64,000 bases of DNA from a virus (Duplodnaviria; Caudoviricetes). Under the pieces are notes generated by a model. The model saw nothing but the letters and a program-made list of their open reading frames with translations, was not told the origin of the DNA and did not search any database. Location of the stretch: the IMG/VR virus record IMGVR_UViG_2767802067_000002, positions 47,332 through 111,331 of that record, one strand, 5' to 3'. This document shows, one piece after another, positions 7,007-25,037 of the stretch. The position numbers and the translations under genes were made by a program. Numbering within the stretch: position 1 is the stretch's first letter; every line of letters begins with the position of its first letter.

Positions 7007-7053
7007 TAGTGGGTAGGCACTATGTTCAACGCCGGGGCGTCCCTGGAGTACCG
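7007..7053 (-). promoter_or_regulatory. A-type element: CGGTAC-N16-CGTTGA promoter followed by TAGTG-N6-CACTA operator
   Basis: Same architecture at 13221, 14887, 21219 and 24991. Confidence 0.8.
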
Positions 7054-7157
7054 GGGTGACGCCGGGTATTTTCAGAAAATCGCAGCTCAGCGGGCATTTG
7101 TCCTCACCCGGAGCCGGGGGCGCAGCCGGACTCCCGCCCGGCCACGCCCGGTGCGGG

Positions 7158-9002
7158 TCAGGCCGCGAGGGCCAGCCAGGGGCGCCCCTGGCCCGGCGCG
7201 TACCGGCTGATCTCCTCGCCGGTGATGCACTCGGTCAGGGCGCACATCAAGATCTCGGCGACGTTGGGCGTCACCGCGTTGCCGTACTGCTTGACCCGGG
7301 CCCTCTTCGAGCCGAGCACGATGTAGTCGTCCGCGAAGCTCATCGCGCGGCCGATCTCGTGGGGCTGGAGCATCCGGAACAGGACCCGCGAGAGGTCCCA
7401 CTCGCCGTCCGGGGTGATGAACGCGAACCTGTCGCGGGTCGACTGGGTGCCCATCGGCTCGCTCACCGGCTTGGCCCGGCCGTTGCCGTAGTACGGGACG
7501 AGGAGGCCGTCCCCGGGGGTCACCAGCGACTGGTGGCCCGCCGCGGTCAGGGTCCGCAGCGGCTCGCTGACCGGGGTGCACATCTGACCGGGATCGCCGT
7601 TCGGGGTGTTGTTCCGCATCACGAACGCGGAGGTCACCAAGCCGTGGTGGTTGCCGCCGGCCGACACGGTGTGCAGCGGCTCCCGGATGTGCCTGGCCTT
7701 CTCCAGGTCGCCGCCGCCGCGCATCGGGATGATGAACGGCGCGTAGGCGAGGGCCGTCTCCAGCCTGGTCGTCTGGGTGCGCAGCGGGTCGTCCAGGCGC
7801 ATCGCCTTCTTCCCGTCGCGGCCCTCGCAGGGAATCAGCAGCGGCGGGATCACCAGGCCGTCGCTCTCGCGGGTGGTGCGGGTCGCCATCGGGTCGCAGA
7901 CGCTCGCGGCGCCGTTCCGCCAGGTGCCGCCGGTCGGGACGAGCAGCGGGCCCGGCTGGCCGCCGGTCAGATCGTCGCCGAACAGCGCACCCTGCTGGTC
8001 CCCGAGCGGGCCGCCGGGGGTCGGCCAGAACTTCTCGACCCCGGCCCGGATGCGGGCCATCGTGTTCGGGGCCAGCCCTTCCGGGCACTCCTCGGACTTC
8101 GGCCGGTCACCGATGGGCGTTCCTTCGATCCCCCAGTCGATCGCCGCGGCGGCCGGGAGGACGTCGGGCTCGACGACCTGGCCGCACGAGGACTTCGGGC
8201 ACCGGTAGGTGTAGCTGGCGCGGTACCGGCCCATGTCCTGGCCTGGCTTGTTGAACACCTGCATCGAGTCGACCCACTCGGCGCAGTTGACGCAGAACGC
8301 CTTGGGGCGGAGCCACTTGTCCCAGTCGGGGTGGCGGCCAAGGGACTTGTGCCAGTACGCGACGTACAGCCGGTCGCGGCTCTGCGGGGCACGGTGCACG
8401 CTGCGCGGGTCGGCGTGCATCGAGTTCAGCGCGATGACCCGCACGAAGTAGCCGAGCTTGCGGATCTCGTTCAGCCACTGGTCCCAGTCGACCCAGCTCC
8501 TGACGTCCGTCACGTTCTCGACCACTCCGGCCTTGACCAGGCCGCCGCGCTCGATCACCCCGCGCAGGTAGAGCGGCACCTCCTCCATCAGGGCCCGCGA
8601 CTCTTCCTCCTCCTTCGTGGGGCCGACCGGCTGCCCGTTCTCGTCGAGGAGCGCGGCCTCCTGCTCGGCGTACAGGCTCAGCAGGTCACCCTGCATCGCC
8701 TTGTCGAAGTCCCGCTTCTTGCCCTTGGCGGATGACCAATTGGTGCACTCTGGGGAGGCCCAGAACAGGTCCGTAATCTCCCACGCCCAGACCGGGGCCT
8801 TGCGGATGTCGCCCCGGTAGTGGGCGACGCCGGGGAAGTTGGCCTCGTGGCTGTCGATGGCCTGCTTCCAGTGGTTCGCCGCGCGGGCCACCCGCAGGCC
8901 GGGCACCGCGTGCATGCCCTGGGACGAGCCGCCTGCCCCGCTGAACCAGTCTTGGACCGTGAGCTCGTTCTGGTCGGCCCACTTCGTCCGCATCGCTGCC
9001 AT
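7158..9002 (-). CDS. DNA (cytosine-5) methyltransferase
   Basis: DWFSGAGG (I), WASPECT (IV), VVENV (VI), PQSRDR (VIII), RMLQPHEIGRAMSF (IX), QYGNAV (X). Confidence 0.93.
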   Translation of the reverse strand: MAAMRTKWADQNELTVQDWFSGAGGSSQGMHAVPGLRVARAANHWKQAIDSHEANFPGVAHYRGDIRKAPVWAWEITDLFWASPECTNWSSAKGKKRDFDKAMQGDLLSLYAEQEAALLDENGQPVGPTKEEEESRALMEEVPLYLRGVIERGGLVKAGVVENVTDVRSWVDWDQWLNEIRKLGYFVRVIALNSMHADPRSVHRAPQSRDRLYVAYWHKSLGRHPDWDKWLRPKAFCVNCAEWVDSMQVFNKPGQDMGRYRASYTYRCPKSSCGQVVEPDVLPAAAAIDWGIEGTPIGDRPKSEECPEGLAPNTMARIRAGVEKFWPTPGGPLGDQQGALFGDDLTGGQPGPLLVPTGGTWRNGAASVCDPMATRTTRESDGLVIPPLLIPCEGRDGKKAMRLDDPLRTQTTRLETALAYAPFIIPMRGGGDLEKARHIREPLHTVSAGGNHHGLVTSAFVMRNNTPNGDPGQMCTPVSEPLRTLTAAGHQSLVTPGDGLLVPYYGNGRAKPVSEPMGTQSTRDRFAFITPDGEWDLSRVLFRMLQPHEIGRAMSFADDYIVLGSKRARVKQYGNAVTPNVAEILMCALTECITGEEISRYAPGQGRPWLALAA

Positions 9003-9094
9003 CGTTTCGCTCTCTTCCCGCTGGGGTCGGTGGTGGGTTGGCCGGCCGGGCGGGATTCCCGCCCCGCCCGGTCGGCGGGGGTGGTGAGGGTAGG

Positions 9095-9190
9095 TCAGCC
9101 GCGGCGCGCGGCGCTGGTCTGGACGACGCTTCCGCGCAGCCTCTCGGGGAGGCCCCCGAGGCTCGGGGCGCTGTCGCTGGTGGCTCGCAT
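9095..9190 (-). CDS. possible 31-aa peptide MRATSDSAPSLGG...
   Basis: GAAGGAAG RBS right after a B-type promoter; stop precedes an H1 hairpin. Confidence 0.4.
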   Translation of the reverse strand: MRATSDSAPSLGGLPERLRGSVVQTSAARRG

Positions 9191-9227
9191 GTTCTTCCTT
9201 CGCTGGTGGGTTGGTGTGTTGTTGATC

Positions 9228-9290
9228 TACTTCCATCATTCCCAAGTGGATTTGAGCTAACCCATTTGACCAAATGGATTTAGGAAAGAT
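9228..9290 (-). promoter_or_regulatory. B-type element: AT-rich, three ~12-bp CAAAT-NN-ATTTG-like boxes at 14-bp period plus AATGAT
   Basis: Boxes start at 9243, 9257, 9271; eight related elements in the window. Confidence 0.75.
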
Positions 9291-9352
9291 TCGGGGCTCG
9301 CAGGCGAACGGGCGGCGGGCATTGTGCCCGCCGCCCGCCTCCTGGCGCTCGG

Positions 9353-10471
9353 TCAGGCCGCGGCGCTGGTGCGGCGCTCGGCGCGGCGGGCGCGGTCGCG
9401 CTCGCGGCGGCAGGTGCGGCAGGTCCGGCGGCTCTTGTGCCGGTAGGTGTTCGCCTCGTCGTAGGCGTGGCCGTTCTTGCAGCGCTCGACCGGCTCCGGG
9501 TGCTGCTCGGCACCGCACTTCGGGCACTGCGCCTCGTGCGCCTCGGGGAACGCGCCGCAGTCGCAGGACCAAGTCTCGATGCACCAGGTCCAGCCGCTGC
9601 CGCCGCCGATGGCGTACAGGCCGTCGGCGTCGCGGGCGATGATCTCGACCGTGCGCTCCGGGTCGCGCTCGTCGTAGTGCTGCCAGCCGACGAGCATCAC
9701 GACGGCCAGGGCGTCGCCGCCGAGGCCGCCGTCGATGACGTGGACGGTATCGAAGGTGCCCGCGCCGTACTGCTCGTTCAGGCGGGCGGTGTCGGCCGCG
9801 AGCTGGCGAGCGGCGTCCAGGGTGAAGCGCGGGCTGACGTAACTGTTCCGGGTGGCGGGCGGGGTGACCCGGGCCGGTGCGCTGATGACGTCGGTGTCGA
9901 TGCACACCCGGGTGTCGATGTCGCCGGCGGGCTCGGGCTTCGCGGCCCGTGCGGCGGCCTGCTGCTCGGCGGCCTGGTTCGCGGCGTACTGCTCGGCCTT
10001 CTCGTCGGCAGGCATCTCGCAGTCCTCGCGGAGCTGGCCGCAGCCCGAGCAGTGGGTCTCGTGCCAGTCGGTGCCGTCGTCGCAGTCGACGCACCACCAG
10101 GACGCCGCGTACCAGCACCACTCCCAGCCGCCGATGCCGTACAGGCCGTCCTCGTCGGGCTCGATGATGTCCGTGCATTCCTCGGGGCCGGAGTCGGGGA
10201 GGTACTGCCAGGAGACCTTGGTGACGATCGCGCGCGGGGTGCCGTCCGGGTTGGTGCCGCCTTCGACGATGTGGACGGTGTCGACGCAGTCGCGGCCGAA
10301 CTCCTCGGCCTGCTGGTCGAGGAACTTGGCGAGCTTGCGGACGGTGGTCAGGTCGAAGCAGGGTGACAGCCAGCCGTTCCACCGGTTGGTCGGGTCGACC
10401 ATGGCCGGGAAGTCGGGGCCGTCGAGGGTCACGAGGGTGGCGACACGGTTGGGGTAGCGGGTGGAGGTCAT
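9353..10471 (-). CDS. hypothetical protein with two copies of a ~120-aa domain, Zn ribbons and a C-terminal CxxGH..CxxC motif
   Basis: PxFxLxxxR...DTVH...GLYxIGG..WxW occurs twice; RCKNGHAYDEANTY...CRTC. Confidence 0.8.
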   Translation of the reverse strand: MTSTRYPNRVATLVTLDGPDFPAMVDPTNRWNGWLSPCFDLTTVRKLAKFLDQQAEEFGRDCVDTVHIVEGGTNPDGTPRAIVTKVSWQYLPDSGPEECTDIIEPDEDGLYGIGGWEWCWYAASWWCVDCDDGTDWHETHCSGCGQLREDCEMPADEKAEQYAANQAAEQQAAARAAKPEPAGDIDTRVCIDTDVISAPARVTPPATRNSYVSPRFTLDAARQLAADTARLNEQYGAGTFDTVHVIDGGLGGDALAVVMLVGWQHYDERDPERTVEIIARDADGLYAIGGGSGWTWCIETWSCDCGAFPEAHEAQCPKCGAEQHPEPVERCKNGHAYDEANTYRHKSRRTCRTCRRERDRARRAERRTSAAA

Positions 10472-10553: not shown

Positions 10554-11045
10554 TCAGGCGGTGGCGTCGGCGGGCGCGGCCTGGTCGTCGCGGGCGCGGC
10601 CGCAGTTCTCGCAGGTGGCGGTGTGCCACTCGTCGCGCAGGCCGCAGGCGCACTGCCAGGACGCCGTCTCCCAGGCCCAGTGGTTGCCGATCCAGTACCG
10701 GCCGGTGCGGTCCGGGGTGACGATGCGGGTCGCGGCTCGCGGGCTATTGACCGCGCGGTCCCAGGTGATGACCATGACGACGGCCATCGGGACGGACGGG
10801 TCCTCGTCCTCGTCCTCGTCGTCGAAGTCGCGGGGTGCGGGGTCGTTGCCGCTGTCGTCGCCGAGGACGTGGACGGTCACGGTGCCGTCGTGGCCGGCGC
10901 GCTCGGCGAGGGCCTGCGTGGCGGTGGCGAGGGCGCGGGCGTCGGCCAGGGAGAAGGCGTGAGCGCGGTCGGGGGCGTCGAGGTCCACTTCGGCGTTCAC
11001 GACCTGGTCGCCGTCCAGGAGGAGGCGGGTGGGGGTGAGGTGCAT
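10554..11045 (-). CDS. hypothetical protein, paralog of the 9353-10471 domain
   Basis: AFSLADARALA...TVHVL...GRYWIGNHWAW..CACG. Confidence 0.8.
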   Translation of the reverse strand: MHLTPTRLLLDGDQVVNAEVDLDAPDRAHAFSLADARALATATQALAERAGHDGTVTVHVLGDDSGNDPAPRDFDDEDEDEDPSVPMAVVMVITWDRAVNSPRAATRIVTPDRTGRYWIGNHWAWETASWQCACGLRDEWHTATCENCGRARDDQAAPADATA

Positions 11046-11109: not shown

Positions 11110-11565
11110 TCAGAACAGGGCCGGCTGAGCGAGGGCCGGGGCGGGGGCGGGGCGGCGGATGCGCGGCTTGGCGCCGAGCTCGGGGACCTGCTGGCCGGTC
11201 CGCTCGGTCCACCAGCTCGCGAAGTGCTGGCGGTGGCAGAAGTTGCCGGGCTTGCTCAGAACGTCGAAGCACAGGAGGACGAGCGGGGTGTCTCCGGCGC
11301 CGATCGCGTCGCCGATGGCCTCCAGTTCGGCGCGGACCTTGGCGACGCCGACCTTGTCGAGCTGGTCGCGGTAGCGGAGCTCGTAGGCGTCCTCGGCGAG
11401 GTCCGCGGCGAGGAGCCCCCAGCTCGGGGTGAGGGTGCGGGCGTGCCCGGCGACCGGCTCGAAGAAGGACCGGGCCGCCCCGGCCGTGGTGCGCACGGGG
11501 ACGCCCATCGTGAGCCGGTACTCCTGGTAGGTGCAGGTCGCGAGGTTCAGCTGGCCAGGGAGCAT
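11110..11565 (-). CDS. DUF488-like protein
   Basis: LTPSW...YELRY...LVLLCFD...CHR motif. Confidence 0.7.
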   Translation of the reverse strand: MLPGQLNLATCTYQEYRLTMGVPVRTTAGAARSFFEPVAGHARTLTPSWGLLAADLAEDAYELRYRDQLDKVGVAKVRAELEAIGDAIGAGDTPLVLLCFDVLSKPGNFCHRQHFASWWTERTGQQVPELGAKPRIRRPAPAPALAQPALF

Positions 11566-11605: not shown

Positions 11606-11692
11606 CTACCAAGATCATTTCCCGTGGGGCCCTGGCTAACCCATTTGGCCAAATGAATTTGACAAAGAGTTCGCCAGGAACCCGCAGGTCAG
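11606..11692 (-). promoter_or_regulatory. B-type element with CTGACCTGCG motif
   Basis: Boxes at 11636 and 11650; GAAATGAT. Confidence 0.7.
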
Positions 11693-12075
11693 AGGGCTTC
11701 CGGCTCGAACGGGATCAGCGGGAACAGGCCGTCCGTCGCGTACCAGCACCACTCGTGGCCGCCGACCGCGTACCGGCCGTCCGCGTTCGGCCGCAGGATC
11801 TCGGCGGCCTCCTCGGCGCGCTCGCCGCCGAGGTACATCCAGCACACGACCAGCACGACCGCGTGCGCGGTGCCGCTCACGTCGCCGTCCAGCACGTGCA
11901 CCGTGTCCACCGAGCCGTGCCCGTACCGGGCGGCCTCCTCCTGGCTGGCGGCCGCGATCTCGCGCACGGTCTCCAGGTCGAACCAGGGCTTCACGTAGCC
12001 GTCGCGCTGGTCGGCGGGGTCCACCATCGCCGGGTACCGGTCGCGGTCGTTGCAGCACACCAGGGTCTGGATCAT
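11689..12075 (-). CDS. hypothetical protein, single-domain paralog of 9353-10471
   Basis: YPAMVDP...PWFDLETVR...DTVHVLDG...YAVGGHEWCWY. Confidence 0.8.
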   Translation of the reverse strand: MIQTLVCCNDRDRYPAMVDPADQRDGYVKPWFDLETVREIAAASQEEAARYGHGSVDTVHVLDGDVSGTAHAVVLVVCWMYLGGERAEEAAEILRPNADGRYAVGGHEWCWYATDGLFPLIPFEPEAL

Positions 12076-12702: not shown

Positions 12703-13146
12703 TCAGAGATCGAACAGGGTGGGCGGCGCGGCGGGCGCCTGCCGGGGCTGGGCGCCCAGCTCGGGGATCACCTCGCCGGTGACCTCCTCGTACCACCGCG
12801 AAAACTGGTTCCGGTGGCACCAGTTGCCGGGCTTGCTGAGCACGTCGAAGCAGAGCAGGACGAGCGGGGTGTCGCCCGCCCCGCTCCGGCGGGCGATGAA
12901 CTCCAGCTCGGCGCGGATCGCGTCGATGCCGGTCGCGTTGAGCATCCGCCGGTACTGGAGCTCGTAGGCGTCGGCCGGGAGGCCGTTGCGGGCGGCGTCG
13001 ACCAGGTCGCGGCTCGGGGTGATGCTCTGGGCGTGGCCGGCGACCGGCTCGGTGAAGAACCTGGCTCCTCCGACCGTGGTCCGGACCGCCAGGCCCATCG
13101 GGGGCCGGTACTCCTGGTAGGTGCAGGTCGCGAGGTTGAGGATCAT
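12703..13146 (-). CDS. DUF488-like protein, paralog of 11110-11565
   Basis: LNLATCTYQEYR and GDTPLVLLCFDVLSKPGNxCHR shared. Confidence 0.7.
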   Translation of the reverse strand: MILNLATCTYQEYRPPMGLAVRTTVGGARFFTEPVAGHAQSITPSRDLVDAARNGLPADAYELQYRRMLNATGIDAIRAELEFIARRSGAGDTPLVLLCFDVLSKPGNWCHRNQFSRWYEEVTGEVIPELGAQPRQAPAAPPTLFDL

Positions 13147-13220
13147 GCTGGGCGGTTCCTTTCGGTGCTGCTGGTGGTGGGGGGTCATCTTGGGGCCTTT
13201 CGCGGTTCGGGGTGGCGGTG

Positions 13221-13267
13221 TAGTGGGTAGCCACTATGGCCAACGCCTGAGCCGCCCTGTGGTTCCG
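13221..13267 (-). promoter_or_regulatory. A-type promoter/operator (CGGAAC-N16-CGTTGG)
   Basis: TAGTGGGTAGCCACTA at 13221-13236. Confidence 0.8.
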
Positions 13268-13309: not shown

Positions 13310-14140
13310 TTACGCGGCGATGCCGAACAAGCCGAGCTGGAGCGGCTGGCGCTGGAGCCAGTCGTAGGTGCGGAGCGGGCCGCCCGCGTACCCGGGGATG
13401 AACACCAGGCAGGTCCGGACGTTCGTCCCGCAGACCGCGAAGCTGTCCTCGGGCAGAGCCTCGATCTCGCCGCCGACCTCCTCGACCATCGCGCGGAACT
13501 CGACCGAGGCGCGGTCGCTCCACCACATCAGGCCCTGGGACATCACGGAGACCAGGATCCCGTCGTCCTTCATGAACCCGATCGCGTGCTTGATGTGGTC
13601 CAGGCCCCTGGCGAAGGGCGGGTTCATCACGATCCGGTCGAAGCCCTCCGGGTAGTCCAGTGGGTCCAGGGAGAGGAAGTCGTCGCGGATCACCGCCCGG
13701 CAGTCGCCCTGCCGGCGGAGGACGTCGGCGCGCACGGGGTCGATCTCGACGGCGTCGACCAGGGCGCCGCGCCTGGCGAGCTCGGCGGTCAGGGCGCCCG
13801 ACCCGGCCGAGGGCTCCAGGACGGTCGTCCCGGCGTAGACGCCGGCGAGGTCGCAGATCTGCATGGTCAGGCTCGGCGGGGTCGGGAACCAGCCCTGCTC
13901 GGTGCGGGTGGGGAACTCGCCGGCCGTGAGGCACTGCCGCATGTGCTCCTCGACCCGGTACGGGAAGACGTGGGCTCGGACCGCCGTGCGGCTGTCCCAG
14001 CGGCCGCCCATCTCCTTGAGGACGCGGTCCACCTGCTCGTACACGGGGCGGTCGAGCTCGAAGGGGATGCGCACCCGGTCGTCGCGGATCTCGGTGCGCG
14101 GGTCGGTGAGGACGGCCAGGGCGTCGCTGGGGAATCGCAT
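13310..14140 (-). CDS. SAM-dependent amino (N6-adenine-type) DNA methyltransferase
   Basis: WFPTP, VLEPSAGSG, AVEID, DFL, IVMNPPF; C-terminal QLGLF. Confidence 0.88.
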   Translation of the reverse strand: MRFPSDALAVLTDPRTEIRDDRVRIPFELDRPVYEQVDRVLKEMGGRWDSRTAVRAHVFPYRVEEHMRQCLTAGEFPTRTEQGWFPTPPSLTMQICDLAGVYAGTTVLEPSAGSGALTAELARRGALVDAVEIDPVRADVLRRQGDCRAVIRDDFLSLDPLDYPEGFDRIVMNPPFARGLDHIKHAIGFMKDDGILVSVMSQGLMWWSDRASVEFRAMVEEVGGEIEALPEDSFAVCGTNVRTCLVFIPGYAGGPLRTYDWLQRQPLQLGLFGIAA

Positions 14141-14173: not shown

Positions 14174-14206
14174 GGGGCGCACCGCGGTTCGGTCGGGGTG
14201 CGCCCC
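14174..14206 (-). repeat. Intergenic hairpin family H2 (loop ACCGAAC on the minus strand). Copies also at ~14972-15004, 22898-22947, 47022-47060.
   Basis: CGGTTCGGTCGGG core within differing inverted-repeat stems. Confidence 0.75.
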
Positions 14207-14216
14207 TGGGTGGCCT

Positions 14217-14232
14217 TAGTGGCTACCCACTA
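14217..14232. promoter_or_regulatory. Stand-alone A operator (inverted). Others at 15018-15033, 20307-20322, 21722-21737, 22283-22298.
   Basis: TAGTGGCTACCCACTA. Confidence 0.8.
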
Positions 14233-14240: not shown

Positions 14241-14858
14241 TCAAGCGGAAATCCGGGTGTAGACGAGCTGCCAGAACTTGTCGACCGGAATGCCGTACTG
14301 GGCGGCCCGGGCGTACCCGAGGGTGATGGTGCCGGGGGCGACCTTGAGCTGCTGGAAGTCGGCCGGGAACTGGGCGTCGACCAGTTCGGCGAGATCGGCG
14401 CCGGCGATGGTGCCGACCTGCTCGGGCTCGACGTGGCGCTCCTTGCGGAACGCCACGGTCTCGATCTTGTAGGTGGCGTCCGTGTCGACGTCCAGAATCG
14501 GGGTGCTGACCTTGGTGTAGATGCGCCGGCGGGTCATCTGGCCGTTCTTCTTGCTGGGCAGCGTCCAGCGCACGGTGATGGTGGAGGAGCCCTCCTCCTG
14601 CTCGATCACGTTGTAGGGGGCCACGAGGCAGGCGTAGAGCTCGGCGCGGAGGTCGGCGCCGGACACGTACTGCTCTCCGCTGGAGTCGCTCTTGCCGTCG
14701 AACCACACCTCGCCCTGGGAGAGGTAGACCGCGGCGGTGTCGATCGCGTAGCTCTCCAGGACGGCTTCGACCATCTCGCGGATGCCGGGGCGGCCGACGG
14801 CCGAGCGGGGGATGGTGTGGCGGATGATGGCGGCCGCGGCGGGAGTGGTGGTGCGCAT
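14241..14858 (-). CDS. hypothetical protein (205 aa)
   Basis: AAGGAG RBS; follows an A-type promoter. Confidence 0.8.
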   Translation of the reverse strand: MRTTTPAAAAIIRHTIPRSAVGRPGIREMVEAVLESYAIDTAAVYLSQGEVWFDGKSDSSGEQYVSGADLRAELYACLVAPYNVIEQEEGSSTITVRWTLPSKKNGQMTRRRIYTKVSTPILDVDTDATYKIETVAFRKERHVEPEQVGTIAGADLAELVDAQFPADFQQLKVAPGTITLGYARAAQYGIPVDKFWQLVYTRISA

Positions 14859-14886: not shown

Positions 14887-14933
14887 TAGTGGGTAGCCAA
14901 TATGACTAACGCTTGAGGGGGCTTGTGGTGCCG
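14887..14933 (-). promoter_or_regulatory. A-type promoter/operator (CGGCAC-N16-CGTTAG)
   Basis: TAGTGGGTAGCCAATA at 14887-14902. Confidence 0.75.
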
Positions 14934-15041
14934 GGTGGATCGCGGTGAATTCGCAGGGGAGGGCGGGTGGTGGGGCGCGCCCCGGTTCGGTCGGGACGCA
15001 CCCCGTGGGGCCACTCATAGTGGCTACCCACTATCAACAGG

Positions 15042-16253
15042 TCAGGCGGCGGCCAGCTCCGGGTTGATCCGGATGATGGAGCCCTCGCGCACCGAGGCGA
15101 TGGCCTCGGCCTTCCGCATGTTGGCCTGCGCCTTGGAGATGACGTCGGCCAGGTGCTTGAGGCGCAGCGAGTAGCCGCCGACTCCGCCGGGGGTGCCGGC
15201 GAGCAGCAGGGCCAGCTCCTCCGGGTCGGCCGCGGCCAGGTCGGCGAGCACCTGGCCCGCGCCGCTCATGCTGTCGACCCGGCCGACGAGCTTCTTGCGC
15301 TCGCCCTGGATGCGCTCGCGCTCGGACTCGGGGAGGTGCGCCGCACCTCCGGGCAGCAGCTCGCCCTGCTGGTCCTTCGTCTGCCGCGGGGCCTCGTCGG
15401 CGAGGACGAAGAAGCTGCCCTGGTCGGCCTGCCGCTTCTCCTCGGAGTGGGCGGCCTGGGCGAACGCCTCGGCGTCGCGGACGGTCTTGAACTCGCCGCG
15501 CGCCCACTTCCCGAGGAACCGCTGCTGGTTGTCGGGGCTGAGCTGCGCGACGTACCAGGAGAGGCCGACCGGCAGGTGGCCCTTGGCGAGGGCGTCCTGC
15601 GCGGCGTCGCTGAGCTTGAGGAGGTCGATCCGCCAGCCCACGTACTGGACGGACTTGCCGACCATCTTCGCGACCTGGGCGGGCTCGTAGCCGTGCTCGT
15701 CCACGAGGCGCTTGAAGGACTTCGCCTCCTCCATCGGGGTCATGTCCGCGCGGGCCGCGTTCTCGGCGACCTGCTCGGCCAAGGTCTTGCCCGCCTCGGC
15801 CTCCCCGCCGCTTCGGACGACGGTCTTCATGTGGGTGAGGCCGGCGAGCTGCGCGGAGTGCCACCGTCGCTCGCCCACCACGATCACGTAGCGCTTGACG
15901 CCGATCTTGCGGACGGTGATCGCCTGGAGCTGGCCGAGCTCCTTCATCGACTCGGCGAGCTCCTGGATCTTGACCGGGTCGAACTCCTCGCGGGGCTGGT
16001 CCGGGTCGGGCTCGATCTGCTCGATCGGGATCAGCTTGTGCGTCTCGCGCACCTCACTGGCGGCCGCTTCGACCTTCTCGGCGGCCACCTCGCGGCGCTT
16101 CTGGACCCGGGTGGGCTCGATCGGCTCGGCGGCCTTCTTCGCGGCGCGCGGCTTGGCGGGGGCCGCCTTCTTCGCGGCCGCCGGCTTGGCGGGCGCGGCG
16201 GCCTTCTTCGCGGCGCGGGGCTTGGCGGCCTTGGTGGCAGGGGTGGCGGTCAT
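15042..16253 (-). CDS. ParB/RepB/Spo0J-family protein (403 aa; shortest in-frame unit of a 1183-aa frame)
   Basis: IEPDPDQPR, GQLQAITVR, IVVGERRW, ENAARADMTPMEEA, HTH; Lys/Ala-rich N-tail; own RBS and B-type promoter. Confidence 0.88.
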   Translation of the reverse strand: MTATPATKAAKPRAAKKAAAPAKPAAAKKAAPAKPRAAKKAAEPIEPTRVQKRREVAAEKVEAAASEVRETHKLIPIEQIEPDPDQPREEFDPVKIQELAESMKELGQLQAITVRKIGVKRYVIVVGERRWHSAQLAGLTHMKTVVRSGGEAEAGKTLAEQVAENAARADMTPMEEAKSFKRLVDEHGYEPAQVAKMVGKSVQYVGWRIDLLKLSDAAQDALAKGHLPVGLSWYVAQLSPDNQQRFLGKWARGEFKTVRDAEAFAQAAHSEEKRQADQGSFFVLADEAPRQTKDQQGELLPGGAAHLPESERERIQGERKKLVGRVDSMSGAGQVLADLAAADPEELALLLAGTPGGVGGYSLRLKHLADVISKAQANMRKAEAIASVREGSIIRINPELAAA

Positions 16254-16928: not shown

Positions 16929-18593
16929 GGCGCTGGCCTTCCGGGTGGAGTGGTGATTGGTTACACCTCCATCCTTTCCGGAAGTCGACTTGTCCAAACC
17001 AATTTGAGTAAAGAAGTTACCGCAAATCCGCAGGTCAGAGGCCATCTCCGGCTCCGGCTCGGCCTTCGCGGCGGGCTCCTCCGTGACGGGCTCCGGCTCG
17101 ACCGGCGGGACGTCGGGCGCAGCCGGCTGCCCGGCCGGGACCGGCTCCGGCGCCTGCTGCTCGGCCGCCGCCGGGACCGGCTCGATGGCGCACACGATGC
17201 CCTGGCCCGGCGAGCCCTTCCAGCTTCCCCGGTGCCGGTAGCCGTGCTCGGCCAGCACCGCGGTCACCTGGGCCAGCAGGGCGCTCGACCACACCGACTC
17301 GGTGTACTTCCGTCCCTCCGCCGCCCGGATCGTCACCGGCTCGTGCGCGCCGTGCGGCTTGCCCACCCCGTTCAGCCAGGACAGCGCCGCCTCCGTGGCG
17401 TCCCACCGGCACTCGACCTTCACCCGCTTTGGCACCTTCGGGTCGGCCCGCTTCTTCGGCGCCTTCGGCTTCGCCGCTGCGGCCTCGCGCAGGGCGCTCG
17501 CCGGGTGCGCCGCCGACGCCTCCCGGGCCGTCTTGAGGCCGGGGACCTTCCCGTCCGCCATGTAGGCGTCCATCGTCGCCTCCGGGCACCGGCCCTTGAC
17601 CTTCGTGTAGTCCGCCGTGTGCGTGCCGACCAGGCCGTCCTGCGTGGCGTCCGCCACGGTCAGCACGTTGCCGGACAGTCGCAGGTTCCACGCGATCGAC
17701 AGCGACTTTGCGTTCACCCGGGCCACCTGGTGCCAGGTGCCGATGTAGCAGACGTAGTCGCCCGGCACGAAGTCCTCCGGGCGCCAGATCTTGGCGCCGG
17801 CGGCCTCGGCGTCGGCGACGACCCGCCGCCAGTAGCCGAGCTCGTCGGCCAGGTCCAGCAGGTCCAGGTCGTTCGCCGCGAGGACGTCGACCAGCACCTC
17901 GGGCCCGATCTTCCCCGCGATGGCGCTCTTCACTGCCTTGCTCTGCTGGCGGTGCAGCCCGCGCTCCTCGGCCTCCAGCTTGGCGATCCGGCGCAGGGTG
18001 ACGCCCGGGTCCTTGCGGTGCTGCTCGTAGTGCTCGGCGGACACCGCGCGGTCCGCCCAGTGCCGGAAGCGGTCGGCCGCCTCGATCGACTTCCGCATGT
18101 GCGAGTCGATCCGCTCGGCGTCCTTCTCGGCGCGGCGCTGGCTGTGGTGGCCGACGAGGATCGGCTGCCCGAAGGGGATGTGGCGCACGATGTCCCCGGC
18201 CGCCTTGTGGCGGGCGTCGGACTCGGCGGCGGCCCGGCCCGCGTAGCCCTCGAAGCGCTCGGCGCGGTCCTCGGCCCGCTCGGTGCGGTCGTCCTCGGCC
18301 TCGGCGAAGGACCGGCGCACGTACTCGTCGACCTCCACCGTCACCGGGTAGCCGGCGGCCTCCAGGGCCCGCTGGATCTCGTTGATCTTCCAGCTGGCCC
18401 GCTTGTCGCGCGAGTTCCGCAGGTACAGGCCGACCGTCCTGGACGAGCGGACGCCGAGCGGGTGGACGATCTCCCAGACGCCGTCGCCCGGGCTGGAGCC
18501 GTCCAGCAGGGTGCCCGCCTCGCGGGTGTGCGTGATCGTGATGTGCGGCTTCGGCCGGGCGCTGTCGGCCGGGGTCTTCTCGGTGCTCTCCAT
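15042..18593 (-). CDS. DUF3560-domain protein reading in frame through to ParB (1183 aa)
   Basis: MESTEK start with GAGGAAG RBS; ERAEDRAERF...IPFGQPILVGHHS is the DUF3560 signature; no stop codon until 15042. Confidence 0.7.
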   Translation of the reverse strand: MESTEKTPADSARPKPHITITHTREAGTLLDGSSPGDGVWEIVHPLGVRSSRTVGLYLRNSRDKRASWKINEIQRALEAAGYPVTVEVDEYVRRSFAEAEDDRTERAEDRAERFEGYAGRAAAESDARHKAAGDIVRHIPFGQPILVGHHSQRRAEKDAERIDSHMRKSIEAADRFRHWADRAVSAEHYEQHRKDPGVTLRRIAKLEAEERGLHRQQSKAVKSAIAGKIGPEVLVDVLAANDLDLLDLADELGYWRRVVADAEAAGAKIWRPEDFVPGDYVCYIGTWHQVARVNAKSLSIAWNLRLSGNVLTVADATQDGLVGTHTADYTKVKGRCPEATMDAYMADGKVPGLKTAREASAAHPASALREAAAAKPKAPKKRADPKVPKRVKVECRWDATEAALSWLNGVGKPHGAHEPVTIRAAEGRKYTESVWSSALLAQVTAVLAEHGYRHRGSWKGSPGQGIVCAIEPVPAAAEQQAPEPVPAGQPAAPDVPPVEPEPVTEEPAAKAEPEPEMASDLRICGNFFTQIGLDKSTSGKDGGVTNHHSTRKASAMPNATTPYADWFQALLGENKPLAMGAEEFERAAYSGHVSYELGGTDGHYAPEPLEVWVKGFRQDPIRSLYRGNDSRNKLAPYANAYAVAVGAAQPAPAARPGEDRDDLVPMVCAHCDESAPVRARERGDFGCDACGKPVNMAQLGLADGEDWAVRPNGQLFRVPAGEPTLVEPIEEPADEVEQGAGAASDLRICGNYFAQIGLDKSTSGNDDGVATHHPTQKASAMTATPATKAAKPRAAKKAAAPAKPAAAKKAAPAKPRAAKKAAEPIEPTRVQKRREVAAEKVEAAASEVRETHKLIPIEQIEPDPDQPREEFDPVKIQELAESMKELGQLQAITVRKIGVKRYVIVVGERRWHSAQLAGLTHMKTVVRSGGEAEAGKTLAEQVAENAARADMTPMEEAKSFKRLVDEHGYEPAQVAKMVGKSVQYVGWRIDLLKLSDAAQDALAKGHLPVGLSWYVAQLSPDNQQRFLGKWARGEFKTVRDAEAFAQAAHSEEKRQADQGSFFVLADEAPRQTKDQQGELLPGGAAHLPESERERIQGERKKLVGRVDSMSGAGQVLADLAAADPEELALLLAGTPGGVGGYSLRLKHLADVISKAQANMRKAEAIASVREGSIIRINPELAAA
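16254..16368 (-). repeat. B-type element embedded in coding frame; near-identical copy at 16929-17043
   Basis: Shared TTTCCGGAAGTCGACTTGTCCAAACCAATTTGAG..CGCAAATCCGCAGGTCAGAGGCC. Confidence 0.9.
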
Positions 18594-19581: not shown

Positions 19582-19658
19582 CTACTTTCATCATTTCCGG
19601 AAATCCATTTGGCCAAACCAGTTTTACAAAATGGATTTCCGGAGTTTTCGCAGGTCAG
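19582..19658 (-). promoter_or_regulatory. B-type element
   Basis: Boxes at 19600, 19614, 19628; GAAATGAT; CTGACCTGCG. Confidence 0.75.
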
Positions 19659-20284
19659 GCCGCCTGTCCGGGCTCCTCCGGTGCGGTCAGCCAGTCTGCG
19701 ATGTACTCGACGCAGGCGGGCACCCCGGTCTCGATCGGGGTGGACAGGGCCAGGCGCTCCGCGTGGTCGCGGCCGACGGCCAGGACGAACCACTCGCTCC
19801 CGCCCAGCTCCGCGAGCGGCATGTCCACGCAGGTGTCCGGCAGGTCCCAGCCCTCGGCCGCCGAGGTGTCCACGTAGATCACCGCGTAGCTCCCACCCGG
19901 CCCGTCGACCTCCAGCCAGCTGTTGCCGACGTCCTCGCCGTGCTGGGCCGTGATCCCGTACTCGGCGAGGGCCAGGCGCATCACGTCCGCCGGGGTCCGC
20001 AGCATCGCCCGGTCGGCCGCGAACTCGGCGCGGGCCTGGCCGGCCGCGGCGTCCGCGCTCACGGCCGCGTACTCCAAGACCTGGAGGTTGCCCTGCTCGG
20101 TCACCGCCTGGTCGAGCAGTTCCTGCTTGCGCTCGGCGCGGGTGGCCGGGTCGGCCGGGGCGGCCTCGACGTGGAGCACGTCGCGCTCCGGCTCCCGGAG
20201 CCCGAGCCAGAAGTCCGGGTGGGTCGGCTCCTCGTCGTTCACCACGAGGAGGAACGTGCAGGGGGCCTTGGTCATCTCGCGCAT
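19655..20284 (-). CDS. hypothetical protein (209 aa)
   Basis: GAGAGG RBS; A operator upstream. Confidence 0.75.
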   Translation of the reverse strand: MREMTKAPCTFLLVVNDEEPTHPDFWLGLREPERDVLHVEAAPADPATRAERKQELLDQAVTEQGNLQVLEYAAVSADAAAGQARAEFAADRAMLRTPADVMRLALAEYGITAQHGEDVGNSWLEVDGPGGSYAVIYVDTSAAEGWDLPDTCVDMPLAELGGSEWFVLAVGRDHAERLALSTPIETGVPACVEYIADWLTAPEEPGQAA

Positions 20285-20391
20285 GGGGTGCGCCTCTCTC
20301 TGGGCTTAGTGGGTAGGCACTACGTCCGCCGCGTGGCTGGACGCAGGGAATCGCGGCCCGGGCCGGTCGCCCGGGCCGCCGGTGCTGCGCC

Positions 20392-20856
20392 CTACTCGGC
20401 GGGGCGCTCGCAGTCGTCGTGCCGGTCGCACCGGCAGGACCCGCAGCCGACGCACATCTCGATCGCCTGGGTGTCGCAGGCGGGGCACCCGCCGGTGGCC
20501 TCGGTCTCGGCCTCGTCCTCGGCGAGCAGGCGGTCGATCTCCGCCTCGCGCGCGGCGGCCCTCTCGCGGACCACCTCGTCCTGGGCCTCCAGCGCGGCCT
20601 TCGTCCAGGTCTCGATCAGCATCTTCCCGGCCGCGGCGGCGGCGTCGCCGGGGGTGAGGCCGTCGGCCAGGCCGCGGGTGTACACCGCCGCGATGGCGGC
20701 CACCGAGTGGTCGTTGGTGAAGTGCTCGGTCAGCATCTCCCGCGACAGGTTCGGGTTCAGCTCGTTCAGCCACTTCGCGGTCCAGCCGGCGATGCGGCCC
20801 ACGGCGTCGCCGAGCTGGGCGGGGTCGGTGGGGAAGGCGATGGTGCTCGCGGTCAT
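20392..20856 (-). CDS. hypothetical protein with Cys-rich C-terminus
   Basis: CPAC...CVGCGSCRCDRHDDC. Confidence 0.75.
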   Translation of the reverse strand: MTASTIAFPTDPAQLGDAVGRIAGWTAKWLNELNPNLSREMLTEHFTNDHSVAAIAAVYTRGLADGLTPGDAAAAAGKMLIETWTKAALEAQDEVVRERAAAREAEIDRLLAEDEAETEATGGCPACDTQAIEMCVGCGSCRCDRHDDCERPAE

Positions 20857-20922: not shown

Positions 20923-21192
20923 TCAGAGCACGCGGGTGGCGGCCATCGCGGCCTCGACGATCTGGATGGTCTGGCCCCAGGCGGCCGGGACGTCCAGGAA
21001 CTCGGTGTTGCCCCAGGCCGCGCAGTAGGTGATCCGGGCCCGGCCGGGCTGGTCGCCGGCGGGCAGCTCGATCGTCCAGTCGTAGCCCTCGTGGCTGACC
21101 ACGGTGCGCGGCCCGAGGTTCGTCCGGATCCAGTAGGTGGAGCTCGCGGCGGCGGCGAACACGGCGGTGGCGGTCTCGGCGGTGACGGTCAT
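20923..21192 (-). CDS. hypothetical protein (89 aa)
   Basis: Follows an A-type promoter; paralog of 21289-21663. Confidence 0.75.
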   Translation of the reverse strand: MTVTAETATAVFAAAASSTYWIRTNLGPRTVVSHEGYDWTIELPAGDQPGRARITYCAAWGNTEFLDVPAAWGQTIQIVEAAMAATRVL

Positions 21193-21218: not shown

Positions 21219-21265
21219 TAGTGGGTAGGCACTATGTTCAACGCGGAACCCGCCCTGGAGTACCG
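21219..21265 (-). promoter_or_regulatory. A-type promoter/operator (CGGTAC-N16-CGTTGA)
   Basis: Near-identical to the 7007 copy. Confidence 0.8.
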
Positions 21266-21663: not shown

Positions 21664-21755
21664 GGTGCTGTCCTCTCGGCTGGAACGGGGCCGGCCGGGC
21701 ATGATGCCCGGCCGGAGCCTTTCGTGGCTACCCACTACGCGGTGGGCGCGCAGAA

Positions 21756-22124
21756 TCAGTCGGCGTCGATCTCGAAGTTCTCCGTGGCGACCAGGAAGCG
21801 GCGCTGCCCTTCCAGCTCGGCCAGGGACGCCGCGGTGACCACCAGGCTGGTGCTGGAGGAGAACCCGCAGCCGATCACGGCCTCCGTGGCCTCCTGGCGC
21901 GTCTTTGCCAGGGCCTCGCGGATGCCCATGCGCTCGGCCCGCTTGCTGAGCTTGATCCACGGCTTGGCCTTCGCCTCGGCGGCCAGCACCTCGTCCATCA
22001 GGCCGGGCAGGAAGGCGCCGGGCGCGGCCAGCGCGGTGGTCAGGCGGGCGCGGGCGTCGGCCGCGGCGGTGAAGGCGCGAGCGCCGAGGGTGGCGATGCG
22101 GTCGGTGGCGGTGGTGACGTTCAC
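21756..22124 (-). CDS. hypothetical helical protein (122 aa)
   Basis: GTG with AAGGAG RBS after a B-type element. Confidence 0.75.
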   Translation of the reverse strand: MNVTTATDRIATLGARAFTAAADARARLTTALAAPGAFLPGLMDEVLAAEAKAKPWIKLSKRAERMGIREALAKTRQEATEAVIGCGFSSSTSLVVTAASLAELEGQRRFLVATENFEIDAD

Positions 22125-22161: not shown

Positions 22162-22238
22162 CTACTTTCATCATCCCCGGTGACCCATTTGACCAAACCA
22201 GTTTTACCAAATGAGTTTCACGTATTTTCGCAGGTCAG
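22162..22238 (-). promoter_or_regulatory. B-type element
   Basis: Boxes at 22180, 22194, 22208; closely resembles the 19582 copy. Confidence 0.75.
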
Positions 22239-22308
22239 CGACGCTGCGCCCGGTCGCGCCGCCCCGCGTCGGCCCCTGCGCATAGTGGGTGCCCACTATG
22301 CTGGCCGC

Positions 22309-22578
22309 ATGGCCTCCACCCCCCTGCCCGAGCCGTTCGCCGCCCTCGCCGAGCTCATCGCCGGCGGCCCCACGATGCACACCGCCGCCCAGCTCGGCGA
22401 AGCCCTCAACGCCGTTCCGCAGCTCCAGCGCTGGCTGCGCGAGCAGCGACAGGACGTCTTCCAGGCGCTCAAGACCACCCACTCCAACGGTGAGATCGCC
22501 ACGCACCTCGGCCTCACCACGCAGCGGGTCGCGGACATCGCCTCCGGGCACTCCCACACCAAGGCGCCGAAGCGCTGA
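22309..22578 (+). CDS. small HTH regulator (89 aa), probably leaderless
   Basis: SNGEIATHLGLTTQRVADIASG HTH; TATGCT -10 (22297-22302) lies 6 nt before ATG and overlaps an A operator. Confidence 0.8.
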   Translation: MASTPLPEPFAALAELIAGGPTMHTAAQLGEALNAVPQLQRWLREQRQDVFQALKTTHSNGEIATHLGLTTQRVADIASGHSHTKAPKR

Positions 22579-22884: not shown

Positions 22885-22964
22885 CCCCGGCACGGAGAAG
22901 CGCCCGCCTCCGCCCCCGGTTCGGTCGGGGTGGTGGCGGGCGCTTCGCTGTCGCCGGCGGCCGG

Positions 22965-23405
22965 TCAGATCAGGGCGGCCACGGCGGCCCGGAGGGCGGC
23001 GACGTCCTCGTACACGATCTCGACGCAGCCGAGGCGGCCGTCCTCGCGGCCCTCCTCGTAGCGGTACAGCTCGGCGGTGATGACGAGGCGGCCGTCGACG
23101 CCCTCGGCGCGGGCGGTGGTGCGCGGCTCGCCGCCCTCGGCGATCCAGCGCGGGTAGCCGGGGTGGCCGAGGATCTGGTCCAGCATGGCGATGAACGCCT
23201 CGGGCGTGCCGGGGACCTGCGTCCTCTCGGCGTCGACGATCACCCAGGAGGCGTCCAGCTCCTCGGGGGTGGCCACGCCCTCCTCGAAGCGCTCGCGGCT
23301 GGTCGCCGCGTTGTAGACCGTCGCGTAGAGGTACGCGGACTCGCCGCGCATCTCGATGTTCCACCAGGGGGTCATCGCGGGGGTGGGGTCCAGGCAGGCG
23401 CCCAT
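22965..23405 (-). CDS. hypothetical protein (146 aa)
   Basis: AAGGAG RBS. Confidence 0.75.
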   Translation of the reverse strand: MGACLDPTPAMTPWWNIEMRGESAYLYATVYNAATSRERFEEGVATPEELDASWVIVDAERTQVPGTPEAFIAMLDQILGHPGYPRWIAEGGEPRTTARAEGVDGRLVITAELYRYEEGREDGRLGCVEIVYEDVAALRAAVAALI

Positions 23406-23446
23406 CGGGTTCTCCTTCGGTCGGGCGTGATCAGGCTATCGGTGGG

Positions 23447-24973
23447 TCAGGCGGCGATCAGGTCGAACAGGCCAAGCTGCTCCGAGCCGCTGGGGACGGC
23501 CGGGAGCGGTGCGCGCTCCGGCCGGGCCGGGGTGCGCGGGTTTGGCAGGGCCGGGCGGGGCTCCGGGTTGGCGGCTTCCTCGCGGAGCTCGCGGACCACG
23601 GTCGGCGCGAGGCCGTGCCGCGCGGCCTCGTCGTCAGTGGGCGCCCAGCCGGCCGGGCGGGGCGCGACCGGGTTGCGGATGCCCTCGACCTTGGCCCAGG
23701 CGGCGCGCATCCGGGCCTGCCGCTCCTCCCAGGTGAGGAGCTGGTCCAAGGCGTCGTGGAACGCCTGGCTGGTGGCGTCGCGGGCGGCGTCCTCCTCGCG
23801 GCGCTCGCGGTCCCGGCAGAGGGCTTCCTGGCCGCCGAAGAGCGGGACGAGCGGCATCAGCTCCTCGTACCAGGGGCGGCGGGGCTCCTTGTTGGCCTCC
23901 CAGCGCTTCCAGACCTCCACGGCGCGGCGGCCGTCGGCGGTGAGGGCGACCGGCCTGCAGCCCGCCGCGTCGGCCGGGGCGGTGGTCAGGAATCCGGCGC
24001 GGGTGAGCGGGAGGAGGCGGCGCAGGTCGAGGCGGCGGCCGGGGCGGCCGGGCGCGGACATGTGGCGCAGGACGTCGCCGGGGTCGATGCGGAGCTGGCC
24101 GCCTGCGGCGGTGAGCATCAGGTCAGCCTGCGTGCTGGTCCAGTTGAGCGCTTCGGCCTGGCGCCGCTCCATCCGCTCCCGGGCCTCCTGGATGACCGCG
24201 GCCTTGCGCCGGTCCTCCTCCTGGCCGCCGATGAGCGGCTGGAGCTCCGTCCGCTCCTTGATGGCCGGGTCGGGCCGCCAGCGCCTCCACAGCTGGAGTG
24301 CGTGCCGTCCGTCCTCGGTGGTGCTGATGCGCTTGCTGCCGGGGCCGTACGGCTCGGTGATGGCGAGGAACCCGGCGTCCACGAGCGGGGCGACGCGCTC
24401 GTCCTCGACGACCCGTCCGATCTCGCCGGGCACCGGGCAGTGCCGCAGGGCGCCCTGCTCGTCGCGGTCGTAGAGGAGCCGCACCGAGCCGGCCGCGTCC
24501 ATCAGGGCGGCCTGGCCGATCGACCAGTCCAGGGCGTACGCCTGACGGCGCTCGGCGATGGCCATCGCGGTGAGTCCGGCGTCCGGGTCCGGCTGCGCCT
24601 CCGGCTCGGCCGCGGCAGGCACCTCGGCGGTCGAAGCGGTCACCGGCTCGGCCTCGGCCGCTGGCGGGGTGTCTCGGATGCGGGAGCCGTAGTTCGCGAT
24701 GGTGGCGAACGGCCGGGGCTTGCCGTCGATGTAGCGCACCGAGACGCGGAACGAGAAGCCGTCCTCGTTGGCCAGCTTCTCGATCTCGTCGGCGTGCTCG
24801 GTGGCGACCTCGTCCGCGCGGCGGGTGAGGAGCAGGGCGAAGGTGCCGATGCGCTCGCCGTTGCGGTACTCGCCCGTGACGCGGAAGTCGCCGCCCTTGC
24901 CCTGGGTCAGGCCGAGGGAGCGCAGGACGCGGGCGAGGGCCACGGCCGGGGTCTTGGGAGGCTGGGGGGTCAT
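23447..24973 (-). CDS. hypothetical protein with an internal ~110-aa duplication (winged-helix-like)
   Basis: ERRQAxALxW...PLxxAGFL...TxDGRxAxxxWxRW occurs twice; ends EQLGLFDLIAA. Confidence 0.8.
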   Translation of the reverse strand: MTPQPPKTPAVALARVLRSLGLTQGKGGDFRVTGEYRNGERIGTFALLLTRRADEVATEHADEIEKLANEDGFSFRVSVRYIDGKPRPFATIANYGSRIRDTPPAAEAEPVTASTAEVPAAAEPEAQPDPDAGLTAMAIAERRQAYALDWSIGQAALMDAAGSVRLLYDRDEQGALRHCPVPGEIGRVVEDERVAPLVDAGFLAITEPYGPGSKRISTTEDGRHALQLWRRWRPDPAIKERTELQPLIGGQEEDRRKAAVIQEARERMERRQAEALNWTSTQADLMLTAAGGQLRIDPGDVLRHMSAPGRPGRRLDLRRLLPLTRAGFLTTAPADAAGCRPVALTADGRRAVEVWKRWEANKEPRRPWYEELMPLVPLFGGQEALCRDRERREEDAARDATSQAFHDALDQLLTWEERQARMRAAWAKVEGIRNPVAPRPAGWAPTDDEAARHGLAPTVVRELREEAANPEPRPALPNPRTPARPERAPLPAVPSGSEQLGLFDLIAA

Positions 24974-24990
24974 CTGGCTCCGTTCATGGT

Positions 24991-25037
24991 TAGTGGGTAG
25001 GCACTATGTCCAACGCTGGGGACACCCTGGGGTACCG
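24991..25037 (-). promoter_or_regulatory. A-type promoter/operator (CGGTAC-N16-CGTTGG)
   Basis: TAGTGGGTAGGCACTA at 24991-25006. Confidence 0.8.

Follow-up and report, generated by a model that had tools for sequence, protein, structure and literature searches.

We analyzed a 64,000-nucleotide (nt) stretch of viral DNA (Duplodnaviria; Caudoviricetes; IMG/VR record IMGVR_UViG_2767802067_000002, positions 47,332 to 111,331; hereafter the window) and found that an 18-kb block within it, made up of accessory or early genes, carries a regulon assembled from five promoters of the extracytoplasmic function (ECF) type, ten copies of a 16-bp palindromic operator, and a gene, rep, encoding an 89-residue candidate repressor. 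The regulon is real, conserved and previously undescribed, and it is of a known general kind. We consider it probable that Rep acts through these operators on five operons with ECF-type promoters, that a host ECF sigma factor reads those promoters, and that the operons are expressed in a burst and then shut off. Comparison among related elements supports the repressor-operator part of this reading well, and the assignment to a host ECF sigma factor is plausible from the form of the promoters.

The window corresponds to positions 229640-293639 of contig C11 in a draft genome (G000) of 8.78 Mb and 72% G+C, and is part of a prophage. A pattern search found five copies of CGGNAC-N16-CGTTRR in the window, all on the minus strand (7026-7053, 13240-13267, 14906-14933, 21238-21265 and 25010-25037), as an earlier note on this DNA had described. 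Shuffled sequence contained a mean of 0.19 copies, and none of 100 shuffles reached five. The same note had reported an exact 16-nt spacer of variable sequence and a palindrome starting 3 nt after the -10 element, and we found both in all five copies. The palindrome TAGTG-N6-CACTA occurs in eight exact copies in the window, against an expectation of zero, and a mismatch-tolerant search adds operators at 14887 (TATTGG...) and 21722 (...CCACGA), bringing the total to ten. The claim that this palindrome follows each promoter thus holds without mismatch at four promoters, while the fifth copy (14887) carries one mismatch. On the coding strand, the promoter-linked operators read TAGTG(C/G)CTACCCACTA, with the imperfect half adjoining the -10 element; the ideal form is the near-palindrome TAGTGGGTACCCACTA. 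Between the end of the palindrome and the ATG lie 17-32 nt in the five promoter units, and a ribosome-binding site precedes each ATG. Across the whole 8.78-Mb assembly, the operator family is confined to window positions 7007-25006. The bare promoter pattern has 17 scattered matches elsewhere in the assembly, which is about chance level, and in a whole-genome position weight matrix (PWM) scan the extended promoter motif scored highly only within the prophage and was always linked to an operator.

The five units share one layout on the minus strand. Unit 1 (24991-25037) consists of a -35 element CGGTAC (25032-25037), a 16-nt spacer, a -10 element CGTTGG (25010-25015), a 3-nt gap, and the operator TAGTGCCTACCCACTA (24991-25006); the ATG of a 508-codon gene (23447-24973) follows 17 nt past the operator. 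The product of this gene matches phrog_15616, and the promoter is kept before it in six elements. Unit 2 (21219-21265; CGGTAC-N16-CGTTGA-ACA-TAGTGCCTACCCACTA) precedes an 89-codon gene (20923-21192) and then a gene at 20392-20856. Unit 3 (14887-14933; CGGCAC-N16-CGTTAG-TCA-TATTGGCTACCCACTA) bears the one-mismatch operator and precedes a 205-codon gene (14241-14858). Unit 4 (13221-13267; CGGAAC-N16-CGTTGG-CCA-TAGTGGCTACCCACTA) heads an operon running from 12703-13188 to 7158-8993, the last gene of which encodes a C5 DNA methyltransferase. Unit 5 (7007-7053; CGGTAC-N16-CGTTGA-ACA-TAGTGCCTACCCACTA) is followed by genes at 6614-6985 and 5422-6540, and has the A/T-rich palindrome ATTTTCTGAAAAT directly upstream of its -35 element.

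The unit is conserved in related elements. An exact-match scan for the operator, covering one genome per species, identified clusters of 2-8 copies in Streptomyces sp. DT224, Embleya sp. AB8, S. carpinensis, Streptomyces sp. NPDC055692 and Actinobacteria bacterium OV450, as well as in the IMG/VR viral contig UViG_2639763148; lone matches in unrelated phyla look chance-like. Three further elements were found through homologues of Rep. We collected 40 distinct promoter-operator units from nine Streptomycetaceae genomes. Their -35 element is GG(A/T)AC in 38 of 40 units, with CC ahead of it, and half of all copies have the strict AAC core; the -10 element is CGTT in 35 units and AGTT in the other five. 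Spacers of 16 nt (27 units) and 17 nt (13 units) were the only lengths found, even though 15 and 18 nt were permitted too. The spacer sequence is free, and G-30, C-26 and GCGTT are invariant or nearly so. The gap between the -10 element and the operator is 3 nt in all 40 units, in a search that allowed 2-4. Such 1-nt play in the spacer, combined with a rigid register between -10 element and operator, would be expected if the operator covers the promoter's start site. Directly upstream of the -35 element, at about -40 to -55, is an A/T-rich, partly palindromic element with the consensus GATTTC..GAAA, which would be either an UP-like element or a second protein-binding site.

The genes behind these promoters are also partly conserved. 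At 35 units the first gene behind the promoter could be scored; these genes belong to 11 families, several of which keep their promoter across elements, and the regulated block reads on that account as a semi-conserved module, not a string of random cassettes. Of the first genes of the window's five units, two are unique. The earlier note had spoken of "accessory cassettes", a term that is apt in part only, since related elements share several of these first genes. In the Embleya sp. AB8 element (L070), the operator TAGTGCCTACCCACTA instead follows a different upstream unit, TTCACTC-N4-GAGTGA ... CACTGGGTCATA, at 10326, 11581, 12401 and 14707, with the TAGT of the operator completing a -10-like hexamer, TATAGT. 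To judge from this arrangement, the Embleya element represents a natural promoter swap in which the operator was retained, and operator and promoter would therefore be separable modules. In some other relatives, an inverted second operator copy, partial or near-complete (GGGTAGTCAC or TAGTGGGTAGTCAC), lies inside the spacer between -35 and -10 elements (L006, 283-330 and 4253-4300; L037, 3496-3540; L039, 698-745), which gives these promoters two candidate Rep sites each.

We identified a likely binder of the operator in rep itself, a plus-strand gene at 22309-22578 whose 89-residue product is predicted to form five helices, with a C-terminal helix-turn-helix (HTH; NGEIATHLGLTTQRVADIASGH). The control region of rep (22283-22302) carries an operator, TAGTGGGTGCCCACTA (22283-22298), whose final TA opens the -10 element TATGCT (22297-22302). 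An ATG follows 6 nt later and there is no Shine-Dalgarno sequence, so that this looks like a leaderless promoter of the housekeeping type with an operator in its spacer and -10 element. The order operator, TAnnnT, 6-7 nt and ATG recurs in all 12 rep homologues examined. Homologues of rep, 45-57% identical, are found inside every operator cluster examined, and in 10 of 400 sampled genomes of the family, spread over 6 of 19 genera; this patchy distribution is as expected of a mobile element.

The recognition helix of Rep also varies together with the palindrome at the rep promoter. Members of the main clade share a nearly invariant helix, QRVADIASGH, and a palindrome of the TAGTGGGTACCCACTA type. 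Of the distant homologues, that of G316 has the helix PERASGIARGA and the palindrome TAGCGGGTACCCGCTA, present twice; that of G307 has the helix SRARAQQIAEGR and the palindrome GTAAGGGGACCCCTTAC; and the G360 homologue pairs a further helix variant with a variant of the G307 palindrome. We consider this co-variation the strongest evidence for binding by Rep. Together with the operator in its own promoter and its co-occurrence with operator clusters, it makes Rep the probable palindrome-binding protein, and it supports well, by comparison, the earlier proposal that a phage repressor gates the promoters.

A confident AlphaFold model of Rep (predicted local distance difference test score, pLDDT, 83.6) shows a single small domain of five helices. 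In Foldseek and VIA-align searches, its last 40 residues aligned weakly (Z<5) to many HTH domains, among them those of GerE, SigW domain 4 on -35 DNA, XRE proteins and a cluster A2 mycobacteriophage repressor; the likeness to region 4 and GerE-type domains has a low score (Z 4.4 against 6jhe). Sequence-profile searches of the PDB gave sub-threshold matches only. NCBI labels the Rep homologues "sigma-70 family RNA polymerase sigma factor". We rejected Rep as a sigma-70 factor, as 89 residues are too few and a genome-wide six-frame search found no match to PF04542, PF08281 or TIGR02937 at the rep locus; the name reflects at most a region-4-like HTH. One related element (L072, on G231:C4) contains two tandem rep paralogues at 9745-10233; this element lies on its own 103.5-kb contig and may be a complete extrachromosomal or separately assembled phage copy.

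Besides the promoter-linked operators, the earlier note had listed five stand-alone ones at 14217, 15018, 20307, 21722 and 22283. All five exist, but they do not form one class. The site at 22283 is that of rep. The operator at 20307-20322, on the minus strand, is in promoter orientation and lies 22 nt ahead of the ATG of 19655-20284. The promoter copy ahead of it has decayed, with both -35 and -10 elements mutated, and because both hexamers are lost we read this operator as probably an internal site of the operon that starts at unit 2 (21265).

The remaining three operators have the orientation opposite to that of the promoter-linked copies, lie 8-18 nt past a stop codon, and are each followed immediately by a strong GC hairpin, all on the minus strand. 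At 14972-15033, the operator TAGTGGGTAGCCACTA (15018-15033) is 8 nt past the stop of a DUF3560-ParB gene and beside a hairpin at 14972-15004 (-48.9 kcal/mol, z -4.6); the same arrangement of operator and hairpin follows the homologous DUF3560-ParB gene in L017 and L038. At 14174-14232, the operator (14217-14232) is 8 nt past the stop of 14241-14858 and beside a hairpin at 14174-14206 (-38.1 kcal/mol, z -4.65). At 21691-21737, a one-mismatch operator (21722-21737) is 18 nt past the stop of 21756-22124 and beside a hairpin at 21691-21715. These hairpins lack a U-tail, and for this reason a consensus terminator scan returned nothing relevant.

From these observations we infer how the regulon may work. 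Rep would be made from its leaderless TAnnnT promoter, which carries its own operator, and would thereby limit its own synthesis. Probably as a dimer, it would bind the 16-bp near-palindrome. On the opposite strand, each of the five operons would start with an A/T-rich stretch, the -35 element CCGG(A/T)AC, a 16-nt spacer, the -10 element CGTT(G/A)N, 3 nt, and the operator. With a gap of 3 nt, the operator would span about +1 to +16, such that bound Rep would block initiation or promoter escape. Operators past stop codons or inside an operon would most likely serve as roadblocks, insulators or aids to cooperative binding. Expression of the module would require both an active host ECF sigma factor and little or no Rep. 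The timing we prefer is a short burst immediately upon DNA entry or induction, which Rep would end as it builds up. The earlier note had the cassettes "switched on" by a host stress or developmental sigma factor; in a prophage such as this one, that wording could refer to a transient burst upon entry and not to a stress response.

ECF promoters are defined by an AAC-type -35 element and a CGT-type -10 element (PMC6767563, PMC2375139). The phage motif shows an AAC-type -35 element, a CGT-type -10 element and 16-17-nt spacing, all conserved in the 40 copies, and in these respects it resembles Streptomyces ECF promoters. The BldN motif is CGTAAC-N16-CGTTGA, a consensus the earlier note had cited correctly, and that of SigR is GGAAT-N18-GTT (PMC2375139); the SigE motif is AAC...CGTCT with a 17-nt spacer (PMC6767563). 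Written in the SigR notation, the phage motif becomes GG(A/T)AC-N17/18-GTT. It resembles SigR, SigE and BldN promoters and equals none of them. The -35 element ends in C where that of SigR has T, and two window copies carry the -10 element CGTTGA, identical to that of BldN. Within the window, the -35 element is GGTAC in three copies, GGAAC in one and GGCAC in one, so that the strict AAC core is present in one of five. The motif lies between those of SigR, SigE and BldN, fitting SigR or SigE about equally well.

The earlier note had seen no sigma gene in the window, and the prophage part of contig C11 (68-318 kb) bears this out: four hidden Markov models (HMMs; PF04542, PF08281, TIGR02937, and TIGR01637 for phage ArpU) gave no match there. 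PF04542 (Sigma70_r2) likewise had no match on the 103.5-kb contig G231:C4, which carries a related regulon. A 297-residue multi-HTH protein (48533-49426) with a weak Sigma70_r4_2 match was rejected as a sigma factor, since PHROGs identifies it as an HNH endonuclease. Because the promoters are of the ECF type and the element has no detectable sigma gene, a host ECF sigma factor is the most likely candidate to read them.

The host genome has about 45 sigma genes. Upstream regions of 46 sigma genes, together with those of hrdB-like and bldN-like genes, contained no convincing partner promoter. Loose matches to GGAAC-N16/17-CGTT lie at C11:55180, C4:34716 and C56:2477, and a SigR-type promoter is present at an hrdD-like host gene. 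The pattern CGTAAC-N16/17-CGTT has nine matches genome-wide, one of them directly downstream of a bldN-like gene, and the regions upstream of seven chaplin domains contained no BldN-type motif under the pattern used. None of the called window genes contains a TTA codon, so that there is no link to bldA at the codon level. A promoter of the ShbA/hrdB type was considered and dropped for want of a testable reference.

Several points weigh against the repressor and host-sigma reading. On the promoter side, the phage -35 element has an invariant G at position 3 where BldN has T, and the -10 element is CGTT where SigE has CGTC. The scans of the host genome revealed no clear host regulon, and no autoregulated host sigma gene, carrying the extended phage motif. 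A phage sigma factor that is very divergent, or an activator that is not a sigma factor, could escape HMM searches, and the conserved A/T-rich element upstream of the -35 element could be an activator site. On the repressor side, Rep has no significant match to a curated family: the Pfam family HTH_28 (E=2e-3) is below the cut-off, and the best NCBIfam match, TIGR02985 (E=0.18), is not significant. Its fold matches are weak and of a generic HTH kind (Z<5). Finally, this 89-residue protein has no obvious sensor for lifting repression in a lysogen.

Part of this evidence bears on an alternative that keeps the repressor and its operators and has the promoters read by a phage factor that HMMs do not see, either a divergent sigma factor or an activator bound at the A/T-rich element. 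That the motif scores highly only inside the prophage and always next to an operator, that no host sigma gene has a closely matching promoter upstream, that the region from about -40 to -55 holds a conserved A/T-rich, partly palindromic element, and that most genes of the module have no known function would all fit such a factor. The early promoters of phage phiC31 are likewise phage-specific in sequence. However, the four sigma HMMs drew a blank on the prophage side of C11, as did Sigma70_r2 on the related 103-kb contig, and AAC/CGT hexamers at 16-17-nt spacing are the canonical ECF signature, for which host ECF sigma factors could suffice. We therefore regard a phage-encoded factor as unlikely, while giving it appreciable weight.

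The palindromes might instead act in RNA, as stabilizing stem-loops at 5' ends and terminator stem-loops at 3' ends. With the usual ECF start, the palindrome would form the first 16 nt of the mRNA and could fold into a hairpin of 5-6 bp; three operator sites adjoin terminator-like hairpins, and in some relatives, as in phiC31, certain palindromes cap a longer hairpin. The hairpins that the palindromes themselves can form are nevertheless weak and no better than those of shuffled sequence (z -0.25 to -1.4). Loop bases are conserved like stem bases, and we found no compensatory changes. Further copies lie in promoter spacers, which are not transcribed, and in the divergent rep promoter, where either orientation is found, and the palindrome sequence shifts together with the recognition helix of Rep. 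The joining of the operator to a quite different upstream unit in Embleya likewise favours binding to DNA over a role in RNA. A role in RNA is very improbable in the face of this pattern. It is equally hard to believe that the units are boundaries of mobile cassettes (recombination sites or a small mobile promoter) instead of a working regulon: the inverted flanking of 14241-14858 by a promoter-side copy upstream and a terminator-side copy downstream, the partly different gene content behind the units of different elements, and several paralogous gene pairs in the block (families D4, D9, D12 and D19) would fit, but conservation is limited to the hexamers and operator with flanks at best 62-74% identical (family D2), the searches run identified no recombinase within the block, orthologous genes retain their unit across genomes, and the fixed 3-nt register to the -10 element and fixed distance to ribosome-binding sites point to transcriptional control.

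The nearest precedent for a repressor acting through dispersed palindromic operators is phiC31, whose conserved inverted repeats (CIRs) are reportedly bound by its c repressor (Ingham et al. 1994; Smith et al. 1999). The phiC31 sequence (AJ006589) contains 15 copies of CCTACTCACGTGAGTAGG. Many of these follow a stop codon by 7-30 nt, and some either cap or adjoin terminator-like hairpins; the repressor gene has one copy upstream and another within its reading frame. In both systems, many near-identical palindromes are scattered between the genes of a Streptomyces temperate phage, the repressor gene included, and the ten operators in 18 kb found here, one of them at the rep promoter, follow the phiC31 pattern. 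The parts are unrelated, however. The window lacks the CIR motif and phiC31 lacks the window operator; Rep has 89 residues where c has 683, and a comparison of the two gave E=8.7; and a tblastn search with phiC31 c found no homologue in the window or on contig C11. Here the operator is fused in a 3-nt register to an ECF-type promoter, a motif that is absent from phiC31.

In cluster A mycobacteriophages such as L5 and Bxb1, one repressor acts at an early lytic promoter and at many "stoperator" sites across the genome, where it stops elongation (PMC9283540; PMC6550527). The after-stop and within-operon sites described here could work in the same way. Stoperators are asymmetric and bound by a monomeric two-domain repressor (PMC9283540), whereas the present sites are near-palindromic and occur in both orientations, suggesting a dimer; they are also gathered in an 18-kb module, and stoperators are spread genome-wide. 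No test that we ran revealed homology between Rep and stoperator repressors, the sole structural match being a generic HTH (7tz1, Z 4.3). A third parallel comes from the leading region of the IncN plasmid pKM101, where repeated CUP (conserved upstream) elements with a site for the ArdK repressor precede a number of establishment or anti-restriction genes and the repressor gene, which is thereby autoregulated (Delver and Belogurov 1997, as cited in PMC6289460). The cargo here similarly has functions typical of establishment, namely orphan DNA methyltransferases and a ParB/DUF3560 protein. The CUP system, to the extent described there, differs in belonging to a Gram-negative plasmid, in having unrelated sequences and proteins, and in lacking an ECF-type promoter; the burst after entry is one that we infer for the present element.

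Within the regulated block, the C5 cytosine methyltransferase gene (7158-8993, minus strand) matches its family profile only at residues 12-104 and about 497-590, and the roughly 390 unexplained residues between could be an inserted domain or an intein. A second methyltransferase is encoded at 13310-14140, and neither of these orphan enzymes has an evident restriction partner. The DUF3560-ParB protein (15042-18593) has 1183 residues, and a protein with an HNH domain is also among the promoter-controlled cargo. Most other genes of the block have no known function. Three pairs of paralogous segments with 71-79% DNA identity (11110-11565 and 12703-13188; 5962-6148 and 6785-6971; 10103-10216 and 11734-11847) indicate that cargo genes were duplicated locally. 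A repeat of about 99 nt, 61-86% identical among its three copies (4760-4858, 6566-6664 and 7109-7207), covers the last codons of successive genes and a long GC hairpin downstream (GGGGCGCGGCCGG...CCGGCCGCGCCC), and the copies look like repeated terminator modules.

Interleaved with the promoter-operator units, upstream of minus-strand genes, is another repeated control element (9256-9289, 11635-11668, 16290-16349, 16965-17024, 19584-19643, 22164-22223, 28884-28943 and 31030-31089). It is A/T-rich and about 60-90 nt long, with palindromes of the type CCATTTG(A/G)CCAAATGG and hexamers resembling TTGACC; the gap separating rep from the divergent gene 21756-22124 holds one copy. This is probably a separate promoter/operator family. 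Outside the prophage, a perfect palindrome, TAGTGCCTAGGCACTA, occurs near contig ends (C13:11-26 and 86896-86911; C110:74-89 and 11016-11031); it resembles the operator and is probably part of the terminal repeats of an insertion sequence, or of a comparable repeat.

The placement of the window in a prophage follows from its other genes, which include a tyrosine integrase (62057-64000), the recombination genes RecT and YqaJ, HNH and GIY-YIG endonucleases, a phage DAM-like/GNAT fusion and a gene of the PAPS-reductase family. Codon-position G+C places almost all genes from 1 to 31 kb on the minus strand. A Phd/YefM-type antitoxin gene (51962-52162, plus strand; Pfam E=4e-10) was also detected, for which we identified no toxin partner. 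The nearest Rep homologues come from Kitasatospora; the host is a Kitasatospora-like actinomycete, and the element is a large temperate phage or prophage of Streptomycetaceae. Among 50,697 phage records, megablast with the 18-kb block and tblastn with Rep found no match, so that no isolated phage with this regulon was found in that set.

A more far-reaching version of our reading is that this prophage family has placed an establishment or anti-restriction module under the control of a SigR- or BldN-type host ECF sigma factor, coupling its expression to stress or development, with a sigma-region-4-like mini-repressor gating the promoters at +1 and acting as a roadblock at operator-bearing terminators. 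We offer this version tentatively and consider it possible rather than likely. If our main reading is right, the 16-bp operator, the 89-residue repressor and the portable promoter of ECF type would together form a compact regulatory kit for Streptomyces. The element would then clearly exemplify a temperate actinophage with many of its genes placed under a host alternative sigma factor, as opposed to the housekeeping factor or one of the phage's own, and would link prophage expression to host stress or development. The layout known from phiC31, with operators across intergenic regions and terminators, is extended here to an unrelated repressor family, which suggests a recurrent solution among actinophages. 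Because its mostly unknown cargo lies beside orphan methyltransferases and a ParB-like protein, the block is a reasonable place to look for anti-defence genes.

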